Shown one piece after another: positions 29,363-33,955 of a stretch of DNA of 64,000 nucleotides (positions within the stretch are counted from its first letter, which is position 1; every line of letters starts with the position of its first letter). Source of the DNA: Phycisphaerae bacterium (lineage in GTDB: Bacteria; Planctomycetota; Phycisphaerae; UBA1845); assembly GCA_963666835.2 (NCBI GenBank), contig CAXXGO010000006.1, positions 1,696,001-1,760,000 of the forward strand, in the 5' to 3' direction. The notes beneath the pieces are model-generated. The model made no database searches and was not told the DNA's origin. It worked only from the letters and a program-made list of their open reading frames with translations. Made by a program: the position numbers and the translations under genes.

Positions 29363-29965
29363 TCAATCCCACTCCGTTGTTTCCTCCCTGATCTTGCCCC
29401 GAGATAGCCAGATCATCATAAACACTGGAAAGGCCCAGCCCCAGGCAATAGCGAACGCTATTCCCACAGCGACTCCGATCGCAACGGCCCCCGCCGGTAT
29501 GCCTGCCTGAATGGGCATCGTTTGCATCATCTGCTGCTGGATCCGGTAGCCGATCATCGCACTAACCACAACCAACATCATTTTCAGGACCGCCCAGCAC
29601 CATAGGATATTCGACGACCGCCGGCGACGCTTGAGCAACCCGATCCCGCCCACGACGTGGATCAGGGCGACAACCAGAGTGGCGAGCGAACTCATCACCG
29701 TCCACCCGCGGTGCTCTATGGCGATTCTTATGGCCACATCATTTGCCGTCGTCTGGGCGCCCGCAGGAAGTGCGCTCTCAAAGAACCATTCATAGAAGAA
29801 GGGCGAAAGTACCCCCCAACCCCCAGCCAACGCCGCTAATCCTCCGAATACGATGCAGAGTGCGCCCAACACCGTTGGCCACTTCGACGGAACCTCCGGC
29901 GGAGGATTATGCACGGGTTGGGTCGGAGGAAGGTCGGGAATTTGGTTGACATCATTGATCGTCAC
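29363..29965 (-). CDS. Hypothetical 4-TM membrane protein (paralog 1)
   Basis: GTG start after AAAGGAGA; paralogous to the adjacent gene. Confidence 0.78.
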   Translation of the reverse strand: MTINDVNQIPDLPPTQPVHNPPPEVPSKWPTVLGALCIVFGGLAALAGGWGVLSPFFYEWFFESALPAGAQTTANDVAIRIAIEHRGWTVMSSLATLVVALIHVVGGIGLLKRRRRSSNILWCWAVLKMMLVVVSAMIGYRIQQQMMQTMPIQAGIPAGAVAIGVAVGIAFAIAWGWAFPVFMMIWLSRGKIREETTEWD

Positions 29966-30074
29966 AAGTCTATCTCCTTTGCTGCGTCTCCGCACAGACT
30001 TCCGGATGTGGCAAGGAACCCCGCCGGTTGCCAGACGAGAGCGTCCGATCGATAGTCGCAAGTGCTGCAGCGCA

Positions 30075-30692
30075 TCAATCCGTCCCCAGAGAGGGTGCCG
30101 GCCGGACATAGCCCCACGCCGCCGTCTCCTCCCTGATCTTACCCCGTGATAGCCAGATCATCATGAACACCGGGAGCGCCCATGCCAACCCAATGAGGAG
30201 CCCGTCCAGCACGATCGAGGCGTTTACATAGATCGTCGTCGGAGTGACGTTTGGAGGGGGCAGCGGCGCAATGTGACTCTCGAGCACGAGGTCACTGATA
30301 AGCAGCAGCACCTTCAGAATCGCCCAGAACCACACGACATTGAACGCCCAGCGGCGCCGCTTGAACAGTCCGCCCCCGGCCACCAGTTGAATCACGGCGA
30401 GGGCGACAGTGGCGAGTGAGCGCACCAGCACCTGACCTTCATGGCCCGCGGCGATCTCACTGACAAAGAACTCCAACGTCCCGCCCGTGATCGGATTCGG
30501 GAAGCTCGTGTAGAACCCATGGAAAAAGAGAGCCGACAGCACGCAGAAACACCCGGCCAGCGCGGCCAACGCCCCGAATACAATGCAGAGCACGCCCAAC
30601 ACCGACGGCCACTTCGAACGGACCTTTGCCGATAGACTGTGTGCCGGCACGGTCGGCGGAATGTGCGGCATACTGTCAACGTGATCGGCCAT
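30075..30692 (-). CDS. Hypothetical 4-TM membrane protein (paralog 2)
   Basis: Shares SKWP.VLG.LCIVFG.LAALAG and PVFMMIWLSRGKIREET with paralog 1. Confidence 0.75.
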   Translation of the reverse strand: MADHVDSMPHIPPTVPAHSLSAKVRSKWPSVLGVLCIVFGALAALAGCFCVLSALFFHGFYTSFPNPITGGTLEFFVSEIAAGHEGQVLVRSLATVALAVIQLVAGGGLFKRRRWAFNVVWFWAILKVLLLISDLVLESHIAPLPPPNVTPTTIYVNASIVLDGLLIGLAWALPVFMMIWLSRGKIREETAAWGYVRPAPSLGTD

Positions 30693-30785
30693 TACCGTCT
30701 TGTTCCCATCCGTGCGATCATGGACCGCCGCCGGCGAGGCGCTATCAACTCTCTGATCGATGTGGGCTCCGCCCAAGAGCCCCAA

Positions 30786-31361
30786 TCACCCGTCTTCCGA
30801 CTCCGCCGGCGTGCTCTGCGGTGTCTTCTTCTTCAAAAGGGCTCTGCCGCCAAGGATCAACAGGAAGATCGCCCCCAAGCCGATGGCCGGGAAGTGCTTC
30901 TGCAGGAGTGGTTCCTTGTCCGGGCATCGGACCCCGGGAATCTCCAGTTGCGTGCCGTCGGCGAAACCGACGACCACGGTTCTTTTCGTCTCGTGGATGC
31001 CCGCAGGGGTGAGGGCGATAGCGAACTCGAGAGACTCACCCCTTCTAATGGCGGCCGCCGGGGTCTCAGCCGCCCATTGAATGTGCCCGAGCTTGGCCGC
31101 TTCGTAGCGGACGTTGCCGGTCATCTCCGTTGCTTTCCAGCCGTCCGGGGCCAGCGTATCGTTACTGCCGTAGTGGAGGGCTTTGAACGTCGTGATCGGT
31201 TTCGATCCGTTGTTGGTGACCTTCCACACGAAGCGGCGTACGTTGTTCGCCTCCTTGCCGCCCGTCACCTCGACGTCGGCCGCGGTGGCCGGAGTGCTAA
31301 CCGCGAAGGACCCAAACAGTGTAAGCCCGACGGCAGATGCGAATTGCGGAAATCGTCGCAC
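30786..31361 (-). CDS. Exported beta-sandwich protein with C-terminal membrane anchor
   Basis: RBS GGGAGG + GTG; signal peptide ending ATA-A; C-terminal TM followed by KKK. Confidence 0.72.
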   Translation of the reverse strand: MRRFPQFASAVGLTLFGSFAVSTPATAADVEVTGGKEANNVRRFVWKVTNNGSKPITTFKALHYGSNDTLAPDGWKATEMTGNVRYEAAKLGHIQWAAETPAAAIRRGESLEFAIALTPAGIHETKRTVVVGFADGTQLEIPGVRCPDKEPLLQKHFPAIGLGAIFLLILGGRALLKKKTPQSTPAESEDG

Positions 31362-31660
31362 TGGCAAACCTCCCATAATGGCCCGATGCCTGGTGTTTGT
31401 GACGCGTAGACCTTGTGCCGATCCGGCCCCGCACCGACCGGCGACAGTGTATGCGAACTCGGGTAATCCCGCCAACCGCGGCGGTTTGCCGGCTCGCCGA
31501 CGCGGTTTCCCGGGTCCGGGAACTCTGACCCCGGCCGGGTGCCGGGTGCCATGGCCCACGCTCGCGTGGCCATGAAGGTTGGTAATCGCATGAAAGGCTG
31601 TCTCCCGCCGGACGGTAGGATGTCCGTTCGGCGGTCGGGAGGACCAATAGGGAGACGACC

Positions 31661-32848
31661 ATGAAGAAGGACAGAATGGTAGCGCAGATTGGCTTGGATA
31701 GCCACAGGAAGTTCAGCTCGGTGACGGCACGGGGAGAAGACAACAGGATTGTATGGCGGCAGCGTCTCGAGCACTGGAATCGGGACGAGGTACGAGAACG
31801 CCTGCAGTCTTGGCCGGTTGGGACTCCCGTGATTCTCGAGGGGACGTTCGGGTGGGGCTGGTTGGCGGACGAGTTGACCGCGGCGGGGTTGGATCCGCAC
31901 TTGGCATCGAGTCGGAAAGTGGCTGGCTGGCGGGAGGTTCGGGGAATCGCGAAGTCCAACCGGACGGATGCAGATCTGTTGTCGGAGCTGTGGTCGGAGA
32001 AGTCGCGGTGGTGGGAGGTCTGGCTGGCGCCGCGGGCGGTTCGGGACGAGCGAGAACGGATGCGGTACCGAATGAGCTTGGTGCAGATGCAGACGCGGCT
32101 CAAGAATCAGATTCACGCCATCCTGCATCGGCACGGGATCTTGCATGAGTTTTCCGACCTTTTCGGCCGGGCCGGCCGGCGTATGTTGGATGGTCTGGTA
32201 ACGCCGAAGGATGAGACGCTTCGAGCCAGCGCGAAGGCTGCGTTGAAGGGGTATCTGCAATTGCTCGATCATGTGCGTCGCCAGATTGCACGGGTCACGC
32301 GAGAAATTCGCCGGGAGCTCAAGAAGGATCCAAACGGCGAACGCTTGCGTACGATCCCGGGGATTGACGTGGTTTTGGCGTATACGATTCTGGCGGAGAT
32401 CGGACGAATCAGCCGATTCCCAAACCGGAAACACTTGGCTTCGTACGCCTTGTTGGCTCCGCGCGCGGACGACAGCGGTGATGAGGACGATGAGACACCC
32501 AAGGGGCGGCATGTGGGACGGATCGGTCGCCGTACGCTGAAATGGGCGTTTATCGAGGCCGCCCGCGGCGCAGTACGGAAGGATAAGCGTTTTCGGGAGA
32601 TCTTTGACCGACGCACAGACGGGGGGAAGAAGGACCGCAATCGCGGCTACATCACCGTGGCTCACGATTTGACGCGTGTGGTACACGTGATGTGGAAAAA
32701 GGAGATCGACTACATGGACGATCCGCCGGATCGTCCACGGACAGCATCAAAGAAACGCCGTCCGGCAAGAACGGCAAGGAAGCGACTTCGAAAGAAATCT
32801 CGTCCGGGAACGGGCCAGCCCGAGGACCCTATGGTCGTTGCTGTCTGA
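31661..32848 (+). CDS. IS110-family recombinase/transposase
   Basis: RuvC-like IGLDSH, ILEG, KSNRTDA; RLKNQIHAIL; Tnp domain LRTIPGI, LAEIG.ISRF, LAPR..DSG, GRRTLKWAFIEAA. Confidence 0.95.
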   Translation: MKKDRMVAQIGLDSHRKFSSVTARGEDNRIVWRQRLEHWNRDEVRERLQSWPVGTPVILEGTFGWGWLADELTAAGLDPHLASSRKVAGWREVRGIAKSNRTDADLLSELWSEKSRWWEVWLAPRAVRDERERMRYRMSLVQMQTRLKNQIHAILHRHGILHEFSDLFGRAGRRMLDGLVTPKDETLRASAKAALKGYLQLLDHVRRQIARVTREIRRELKKDPNGERLRTIPGIDVVLAYTILAEIGRISRFPNRKHLASYALLAPRADDSGDEDDETPKGRHVGRIGRRTLKWAFIEAARGAVRKDKRFREIFDRRTDGGKKDRNRGYITVAHDLTRVVHVMWKKEIDYMDDPPDRPRTASKKRRPARTARKRLRKKSRPGTGQPEDPMVVAV

Positions 32849-33000
32849 GAAGACGGCTCCAGGCCTCGTAGTAAATGGGCCGCCCGTACCGGACGAGATC
32901 ATGCGACCCCGCGCCCGGTGTCCCATGGTGGCATCGGATCGACATCATGTTGTTATGTCGGCAGGCAAGCGGTAGCGCGAATGGATAGATGGACCGATCG
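32797..33000 (+). ncRNA. Candidate bridge/seek RNA (two stem-internal-loop modules)
   Basis: Stem 32797-32821/32877-32899 encloses GGACCCTA (reverse complement of target TAGGGTCC); a second stem encloses ATGGATA (donor junction). Confidence 0.7.
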
Positions 33001-33374
33001 AGAGATCTAGTCCGAACCGGTACACGGACGAGACAGATACGAGAAAGACACTGGGAAACGCCCGCGGGGTCGGGCTTTCCCGCCTACGGCGGAACTGGGG
33101 GCGCTGCCCCCAGACCCCCGGAGTTTATCGCTTTGGACCAAGAGCAGACTGCAGAACATATGATAAGAGGCGTCCACCAGCTACGATGGACGCCCCTGCC
33201 CTTGACCAGGTCGTCAAGAGTCTGCCCTCGGGTCTTGCGGGCGCTCGGGTCGCACTCCTGCGTTGCCCTACCCTCTCGCAAGACAACGCCAGGATAATCG
33301 GATTGACCCCAATCGAACAGCCCCGTTGCCTGCCGAATCAGCAAGCAGCCGGGCCGAATGGGAATGTTTTATAC

Positions 33375-33399
33375 TTGACCGGGACATGCCTTTCATGGA
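33375..33399 (+). promoter_or_regulatory. Outward -35 of IS circle-junction promoter
   Basis: TTGACC + 17 bp + GA|TAAT once joined to the left end at 31583. Confidence 0.8.
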
Positions 33400-33955
33400 T
33401 AGGGTCCGCTGTGCGGACCACTGGAGTTTGGCACTTAACTAGTTAGCGCGATTGCTCTCCTTTCCGCGTTGGCGCGGCTGAAATCAGCCCGTTCACGCGT
33501 ACGCGATAGGTGGAGCCAGTGCCAGACTCCGTTCCGGGGACTTCGTGATGGACCATGGAGCTGACACGAAGTCGTTTGAACATCCGTCAATCATCTTGCA
33601 TCCCTGTCTCCCATGCTGTTCCGTACCTCAGGGCCCGTCCGTTTTGCCTGCCGAATCACGCCTTCGATCTCTAGTCGCAGGTCAATCGGGAGCGTGCCCG
33701 TTTTTCCGTTAGAGAAACCAGGCTCAAGATGCCGAAACCTGATAATACACGGGAAGTCCGGAATCTTTGCTCGACCCCCGGGCCCAACAGCCAGACTAGC
33801 TCTAGACAAAAAGGGCCAAAGTCCAGGGGTCCGCTGTGCGGACCAACCGACTTCAGGGAAACCGAGGCCCTCGGCCAAGTCAAAGAGGCACGGTCCGCCC
33901 GGTCGATAAGGCGGGGAGGTGCGTAAGGCTCACATGTCCAACTAAGGAGCTCAAC

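Follow-up and report, generated by a model that had tools for sequence, protein, structure and literature searches.

RNA-guided target choice by insertion sequences of the IS110 and IS1111 groups has been in print since 2024 (PMC11208160; PMC11187229), and the text of the same two papers also describes the location of the RNA on the 3' side in IS1111 elements, the order of its guides and the targeting of repetitive extragenic palindromic (REP) sequences. Here we describe a related locus in a 64,000-nt stretch of DNA from a Phycisphaerae bacterium (contig CAXXGO010000006.1), referred to below as the window; coordinates are positions within it unless a locus label is given. Positions 31583-33399 of the window are an IS1111-type insertion sequence (IS110 family) of 1817 bp, and the segment from 32797 to about 33034 very probably encodes the predicted bridge (seek) RNA of this element. 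About one fifth of this RNA (32797-32848), including its right-target guide, lies within the open reading frame (ORF) of the transposase, so that its origin is not wholly non-coding. The RNA is presumably co-transcribed with the overlapping transposase gene, and would be produced and bound by the transposase.

Several features lead us to this reading. The protein is an IS110-family RNA-guided transposase, since it matches PF01548 (E = 4.8e-07) and PF02371 (E = 1e-17), the combination of a DEDD (RuvC-like) N-terminal domain and a PF02371 C-terminal domain that is characteristic of IS1111 elements, and reaches 175 bits over residues 10-347 with the NCBIfam model for IS110 family RNA-guided transposases (NF033542, cut-off 140). 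The genome holds five copies of the element with identical ends, and all four right flanks that can be read begin with TAGGGTCCG in one orientation. The target-binding part of the RNA (module 1) is recovered both as minimum free energy (MFE) fold and as RNAalifold consensus, and its guides covary with the flanking DNA on both sides, while a base on the donor side matches the right end in 74 of 74 loci. Finally, the order of the guides is that reported for IS1111 seekRNAs (text of PMC11187229), and IS1111 bridge RNAs have been reported in the right end, with the donor bases in a multiloop (text of PMC11208160). The transposase gene and the parts of module 1 are as follows.

31661..32848, + strand: transposase ORF, 395 aa, with the stop codon TGA at 32846-32848
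32797..32807, + strand: 5' strand of helix P1a, ATCTCGTCCGG, codons K-S-R-P-G; pairs with CCGGACGAGAT at 32889-32899 or, alternatively, with 33025-33034
32810..32821, + strand: 5' strands of helices P1b (32810-32815) and P1c (32818-32821), which pair with 32882-32887 and 32877-32880
32824..32831, + strand: right-target guide GGACCC with core UA, complementary to top strand TAGGGTCC; codons E-D-P-M
32833..32865, + strand: inner target module, helix GGUC 32833-32836/GGCC 32862-32865 (97.3% paired) enclosing P2
32840..32858, + strand: hairpin P2, GCTGTCT-GAGA-AGACGGC, containing the stop codon
32869..32873, + strand: left-target guide UAG with core UA, same sequence as the top strand, predicted to pair with the bottom strand
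32877..32899, + strand: 3' strands of P1c, P1b and P1a, as in the MFE fold, the RNAalifold consensus and the helix counts

The comparisons rest on a protein search in which 8000 candidates were scored and 1578 of them qualified as relatives at E <= 0.001; the best 120 relatives are 62-100% identical. Locus DNA was taken from genome contigs for 33 loci (Planctomycetota-type or unclassified metagenome-assembled genomes) and from metagenome contigs for the best 80 of 183. Module 1 is recognisable in 97 of the window and these 113 loci; the donor motif was located in 93 loci, the right end in 83 and the left end in 82, the ends of the element in relatives being placed by anchor motifs and not by empty sites. 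The DNA of the RNA region is strikingly conserved and consists of TCTCGTCCGGGAACGGGCCAGCCC, 6-8 variable nt, TATGGTCG, a hairpin that varies, CTTCAGRCCTC, three variable nt and GTAAATGGGCCGCCCGCACCGGACGAGATC. All structure counts were taken from an alignment of 82 distinct RNA regions.

Module 1 is the MFE fold of 32790-33010 (221 nt, -91.6 kcal/mol, z = -2.63, with 5 of 200 shuffles as stable) and of 32795-33044, as well as the RNAalifold consensus of the 82 relatives; both methods confirm the pairing of ATCTCGTCCGG with CCGGACGAGAT that an earlier note on this DNA had proposed, and all strings quoted there are in place (e.g. GGACCCTA at 32824-32831 and ATGGATA at 32981-32987). Counted over P1a-c, GGUC/GGCC and the donor-side helices P3 (base) and P4 described below, 92.4% of the cells of the alignment are paired and 18 pairs are changed on both sides, whereas none of 500 shuffles matched the observed alignment on all five measures and slid controls had 28-45% of cells paired. 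P2 shows strong covariation in RNAalifold (e.g. CG:21, UA:17, GC:17), and compensatory changes occur in P1b/P1c in a few relatives (CG:3, AU:2, UA:1). The target module would be the internal loop between P1a-c and the helix GGUC/GGCC.

The weight of the match between guide and target comes from comparison across the family and not from the count of TAGGGTCC in the window, where three matches against 1.27 expected are within chance alone (13 of 100 shuffles reach three). The bases preceding TATGG are variable and, locus by locus, reverse-complementary to the right flank of the same element: at least seven contiguous Watson-Crick pairs, counted from the core, are formed between the 5' guide and its own right flank in 56 of the 77 loci that have both parts. 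The most frequent run is eight (TA plus six), over 39 distinct guides and 41 distinct flanks, and the mean run of 6.44 compares with 3.30 in 1000 shuffled pairings (shuffle maximum 3.82). The proposal that GGACCCUA guides the right half of the target is thereby supported, GGACCCUA being complementary to TAGGGTCC and covarying in the relatives, and the check suggested with it, covariation of guides and targets across homologous 3' ends, gave a positive result.

Two variants were observed at the core. Locus L082 has TG instead of TA at its right junction and CA instead of UA in its 5' guide, with TA retained in the left junction and in the 3' guide, so that on the right side the second "core" base acts like a target base that can be programmed. 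A subgroup of loci (L026-L028, L031, L096, L101, L105, L109, L114-L116, L121 and L130-L132) has U-UGG in place of UA-UGG after the 5' guide, one base shorter, and these elements are still found at TA; in them the first core base T would be unpaired.

On the left side, the 3' guide is identical to the flank at positions -1/-2/-3 in fractions of 0.96/0.64/0.52 of 80 loci (0.71/0.33/0.27 when shuffled), which is above the maximum of 500 shuffles at each position. One register alone fits the left flank, with the core TA at 32872-32873 and 2.39 of 4 matches; TCGTA (32866-32870), which had been taken for the opposite guide, lies three bases out of register and reaches 0.96. The locus thus has the two guides expected of a bridge or seekRNA, directed to opposite target strands, overlapping at the core and both covarying with the flanks, and its identification as such, first made in the earlier note, draws its support from this covariation and from that with the right end. 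Jointly the two guides would define a target of about 11 bp (nnn-TA-nnnnnn) that lies in a REP-like hairpin.

Some observations count against this reading. Fewer than seven contiguous pairs are found in 21 of the 77 loci; several of these are explained by a single mismatch or by the parser slipping out of register and one (L114) is a head-to-tail junction, but true mismatches between guide and flank are present in L021, L029/L103 and L054. The five left flanks of the window element fit UAG at one or two of three positions (CAC at two of three, counting wobble). A scan of 31300-33700 against Rfam with E up to 10 gave four chance-level matches and no bridge RNA family. The shuffle controls overstate independence because the relatives are phylogenetically related, and the strongest association in the search for a left-donor guide (see below), at left-end position 6, is not a pairing pattern.

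The overlap of RNA and gene is found throughout the family. The stop codon TGA at 32846-32848 sits in P2, the codons of K-S-R-P-G-T-G-Q-P form the stem strands and those of E-D-P-M the guide; the target loop had indeed been placed inside the last codons of the ORF by the earlier note, and a long ORF reads the frame of the window through the 5' half of the RNA in 89 of 94 distinct loci (another frame in 5), with the stop mostly 36 or 39 nt past the ACG codon. Among the best 120 of the 1578 proteins, 114 have an SRPGTGQP-like motif 8-17 residues before the C-terminus, and the three residues that follow the motif, encoded by the guide codons, occur in 32 different combinations. Third positions of the eight overlap codons are 0.98 identical, as compared to 0.67 in the best-conserved protein core (positions 1 and 2: 0.98 and 0.97), and the DNA is therefore held by the RNA.

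With 395 aa the transposase is outside the range of 330-350 aa given for IS1111 in the text of PMC11187229. Its best 120 of 1578 relatives have 379-418 aa, save one of 330 aa, and the extra length consists of a basic linker and the tail that overlaps the RNA. The motif LLAPRADDSG, with S272 nearly invariant and G273 invariant in 33 sequences, corresponds to the S/T-G motif of IS1111 transposases (GL-P----S(t)G), though the first G is L in the window protein. An AlphaFold2 model from 33 sequences has a mean predicted local distance difference test (pLDDT) score of 64, with residues 356-395 below 50 and predicted disordered; the model is uninformative on the function of the tail.

It is quite possible, although in our view somewhat improbable, that the overlap is incidental, i.e. 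that the RNA is the sole functional product of 32797-32848 and that the ORF merely runs to the first stop, which would leave the last 17 codons, and perhaps the whole 48-residue tail, without a role at the protein level. The predicted disorder of the tail (pLDDT <50 for residues 356-395), its position outside the NCBIfam profile (residues 10-347), the conserved third codon positions (0.98) and the presence of the same DNA in another frame in 5 of 94 loci would all fit such a scenario, as would substitutions that follow the rules of RNA, since C-to-U changes retaining a G-U pair alter Pro to Ser or Thr to Met. It accounts less well for the 89 of 94 loci with the frame of the window, where about one third would be expected if the frame were free and where the linker varies by up to about 30 residues, and for the same motif 8-17 residues before the C-terminus in 114 of the best 120 of the 1578 relatives. 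The preservation of the frame in spite of the very variable linker length suggests that the tail, too, is under selection at the protein level.

A more far-reaching proposal combines three parts: a guide that is truly dual-coding with a selected C-terminal peptide, mutual exclusion of translation and RNA maturation, and a switch of pairing partner by the 5' strand. We advance it tentatively and consider it unlikely to hold in all parts at once. If the guide were dual-coding, the same bases would serve as RNA stem and guide and as a selected peptide (basic linker, SRPGTGQP-xx-PMVVA) in a Planctomycetota-associated subfamily, and each retargeting event would rewrite two or three residues of the transposase. 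Translation and RNA maturation of one transcript would exclude each other because excision of the RNA would remove the stop codon, and the dosage of enzyme and guide would be coupled. The partner switch is taken up with the donor side of the RNA, for which the following features were found.

32903..32978, + strand: variable hairpin P3, base helix GCG 32903-32905/CGC 32976-32978, 96.7% paired
32981..32987, + strand: right-donor guide AUGGAUA, equal to right end ATGGA plus core TA
32991..33013, + strand: hairpin P4, GGAC 32991-32994/GUCC 33010-33013, with inner GAUC 32996-32999/GAUC 33004-33007
33025..33034, + strand: conserved strand S4, CGGACGAGAC, which repeats the 3' strand of P1a and pairs with 32797-32806 in 81.8% of cells

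The donor side would form no simple internal loop; AUGGAUA would instead lie between the variable P3 and the conserved P4, probably in a multiloop. The base of P3 covaries (UA:46/GC:34/CG:1 and GC:75/AU:7) and its interior ranges from 26 to 154 nt across relatives, while the outer helix of P4 is 93.9% paired with GC:55/AU:15 at one pair. Base 32984, which is G or A, agrees with the penultimate base of the right end in 74 of 74 loci (G/G 68, A/A 6), in agreement with the previous interpretation of ATGGATA as a match to the right end plus core; the six A/A loci may trace to a single change, since all of them are among the loci most distant from the query.

Described bridge and seekRNAs recognise both sides of the donor junction. 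Here the right side is matched in 74 of 74 loci; a guide for the left donor end was not found among the RNA columns of the relatives, and when left-end positions 4-7 were compared with every RNA column by mutual information, the associations showed no pairing pattern. Recognition of the left donor end would nevertheless be part of the model. Two candidates for such a guide were rejected: UGUUGUUA, put forward in the earlier note, is not conserved in relatives, and CAUGCGA (32900-32906), complementary to TCGCATG of the left end, has a middle base that in relatives covaries with the opposite P3 strand rather than the left end.

The alternative that the RNA consists of exactly two simple internal loops, the donor loop being closed by ATCGG..CATC/GATG..CCGAT and holding TGTTA and ATGGATA, is very improbable. 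These strings exist and are complementary in the window, and UGUUGUUA could pair with TAATCGCA by eye with two wobbles and one mismatch. However, the stem columns are gapped in 61-76 of the 82 relatives and otherwise poorly paired (49-64% of cells), the stem is missing from both the MFE and the centroid fold, it could not be accommodated in relatives whose P3 interior is just 26-29 nt long, and it is incompatible with the conserved P4 because its 3' arm lies inside that hairpin (93.9% paired). The region of TGTTA, which had been read as the left-donor guide, is absent or different in most relatives. What survives of the two loops is thus the target loop and the right-donor match, and what has to be given up is a second module in the form of a simple internal loop closed by ATCGG/CCGAT.

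Strand S4 represents a second possible partner of the 5' strand. At the variable column of the 5' strand (C/U), pairing with S4 gives CG:69, UA:8 and UG:5 and is thus compensated in eight sequences, whereas the P1a partner (32889-32899) gives CG:69 and UG:13 with zero compensation; the outermost pair with S4 has CG:25, GC:7 and AU:4. Folds of the window constrained to one or the other partner are 3 kcal/mol apart (-99.8 vs -96.8 kcal/mol). S4 could possibly act in a switch, as closing helix of a long form of the RNA or as a protein site. In a switch, the 5' strand would alternate between 32889-32899 and 33025-33034, one fold being target-only and the other a full multiloop that frees CCGGACGAGAUCAU beside the donor guide.

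It is hardly credible that the structure is a terminator or an element controlling mRNA stability or translation of the transposase gene instead of a guide. Its location at the end of the ORF with the stop codon in a hairpin would suit such a side role, which could coexist with the guide function, but a regulatory element would not track flanking targets over 39 different guides, nor the base of the right end. Conservation of 32797-32848 as a C-terminal peptide alone, with no RNA involved, would explain the nearly invariant SRPGTGQP of the protein alignment but is practically excluded by third positions conserved like first and second (0.98, vs 0.67 in the best-conserved core), by the retention of the DNA in another frame in five loci and by a non-coding 3' strand that is equally conserved and complementary.

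The predicted bridge RNA belongs to an element whose remaining features and insertion site are as follows.

31583..33399, + strand: insertion sequence, TAATCGC...CATGGA, 1817 bp, exactly the same stretch in all copies
31589..31598, + strand: left subterminal inverted repeat CATGAAAGGC, reverse complement of 33388-33397, found in 82 of 97 related loci
33375..33380, + strand: TTGACC, likely -35 box of a junction promoter, 17 nt before GA-TA-AT
33388..33397, + strand: right subterminal inverted repeat GCCTTTCATG, complement of CATGAAAGGC
33400..33419, + strand: target, core TA plus GGGTCC, within the REP-like hairpin GGTCCGC-TGT-GCGGACC

The five copies differ by 0-2 substitutions, and one is interrupted by a contig end. 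An assembly unitig of 1826 nt (31583-33408) has a depth of 26 compared to about 9 in the flanking DNA; in the contigs of four DNA runs just this repeat unitig was recovered, with no empty site and no circle junction of the element. The subterminal inverted repeats of 10 bp each, inset by 6 nt at the left end and by 2 nt plus the core at the right end, are within the 7-17 bp known for IS1111 elements, and the long non-coding end downstream of the transposase gene typical of that group is also present (551 nt past the stop, 32849-33399, vs 78 nt at the left end, 31583-31660). The single TA core can be assigned to either end (31583-31584 or 33400-33401). The left flanks of the five copies are unlike (TGG, AAG, CAC, TGG, AGG), and both junctions share the 2-nt core only, i.e. 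insertion is specific for site and orientation without target duplication, as in IS1111. From the right flanks with TAGGGTCCG, the shared TA and the hairpin GGTCCG…CGGACC, it therefore follows that the element inserted in the orientation-specific manner of IS1111 at TA in a REP-like hairpin. Genome-wide there are 45 TAGGGTCCG sites; the hairpin arm follows at 21 of them, and four are occupied by the element.

TTGACC-17 nt-GATAAT is a putative promoter of the circle junction, the hexamer GA-TA-AT arising only where the right end abuts the left end; in 44 of 77 distinct right ends at least five of six positions match TTGACA at exactly 17-nt spacing. In a circular form, this junction promoter would drive the RNA. 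One related locus (L114:1700-1860) has a right end, TA, a complete left end and then a second transposase start, with a single TA between the ends, and is either a head-to-tail dimer or an assembled circle junction.

Further observations concern fragments and surroundings of the element. Locus L006 (G000:C6:351477-351531) contains the first 33 nt of the left end as a solo fragment joined without a gap to a TAGGGTCCGTTCCGCGGACC REP. Where this fusion lies, the intact element (31583-31640) goes on with G-TA-GGATGTCCGTTCGGCGGTC, which copies its own target in degenerate form, and the fragment could be the scar of an aberrant excision between this internal pseudo-target and the right flank, or it could have captured a REP. 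The left flank of the window copy (31534-31579) is another repeat with the palindrome CCATGGCCCACGCTCGCGTGGCCATG, which explains most (about 45) of 52 genome matches and which is also found leftward of the solo left-end fragment on C6. Within the non-coding right part, 33096-33134 and 33240-33275 have raised contig depth in other runs, and a joint that omits about 105 nt between these stretches is present in runs X3 and X6, which may reflect a further family of small repeats or a shorter variant. A contig of run X3, from another organism, shares the RNA from 32860 onward with a different sequence (…GCTATGGTCGCGGCC…) before that point; this break points to a sister element with another guide. 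Finally, two paralogous ORFs (248 and 236 aa) lie side by side on the minus strand (29363-30785); they have C-terminal ...PVFMMIWLSRGKIREET... in common and look like membrane proteins.

Bridge and seekRNAs, which are described as non-coding, are under development as tools for programmable recombination. A guide within the ORF of the recombinase, in a subfamily of which more than 100 relatives were sampled, indicates that the genes for RNA and protein can be fused. The 39 natural guide variants with their matched targets could be used for learning targeting rules, according to which the right half (6 nt plus core) is read strictly and the left half (3 nt) loosely. Two cautions follow: pipelines that scan only non-coding ends can miss part of such systems, and reprogramming a guide without checking the protein can alter the transposase. 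The second partner of the 5' strand gives a starting point, accessible to testing, for explaining how the donor is presented by RNAs of the IS1111 type.

Among described systems, the seekRNAs of ISEc11, ISPa11 and ISKpn4 (Siddiquee et al. 2024, PMC11187229) are closest. According to the text of that paper, the transposase transcript likewise carries the RNA in its downstream part, with the match to the top strand placed 5' of that to the bottom strand; these elements also have subterminal inverted repeats, and ISPa11 also targets REP sequences. Their RNAs are assigned in that text to the non-coding region (NCR), the NCR deleted in ISEc11 being bases 1170-1374 of 1433, whereas in the window element the 5' stem strands and the entire right-target guide are in the ORF, and the transposase has 395 aa vs the 330-350 aa quoted there for the IS1111 family. 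The bridge RNA of IS621 in the IS110 group (Durrant et al. 2024, PMC11208160) shares with our element, as far as described in the text, the same two recombinase domains, pairs of guides in a loop, directed to both strands and extending over the core dinucleotide, separate target- and donor-binding parts and a promoter at the circle junction (putative in our case). In IS621, however, the RNA is encoded upstream, within the left end, its guides stand in the opposite order and the donor loop is a simple internal loop (PMC11208160), while the donor bases of the window element are located between two hairpins, fitting the multiloop that the same text describes for many IS1111 orthologues.

In the literature searched, figures and PDF supplements excepted, we found no statement of a bridge or seekRNA guide within coding sequence and no dual pairing of the 5' strand of a bridge RNA; the figure of PMC11187229 in which the position of the stop codon with respect to the RNA is indicated belongs to the excepted parts. 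The principle of RNA guidance is already known, and the guide inside the ORF and the two partners of the 5' strand are apparently new, not having been found in print.

A partial parallel exists outside the IS110 family. The omega RNA (reRNA) of TnpB in IS200/IS605 elements is also a transposon guide RNA, and its scaffold overlaps the 3' end of the gene of its protein; its guide segment is located outside element and ORF, and enzyme class and reaction are unlike those of the IS1111 type. In the element described here, by contrast, the programmable guide bases are themselves codons.

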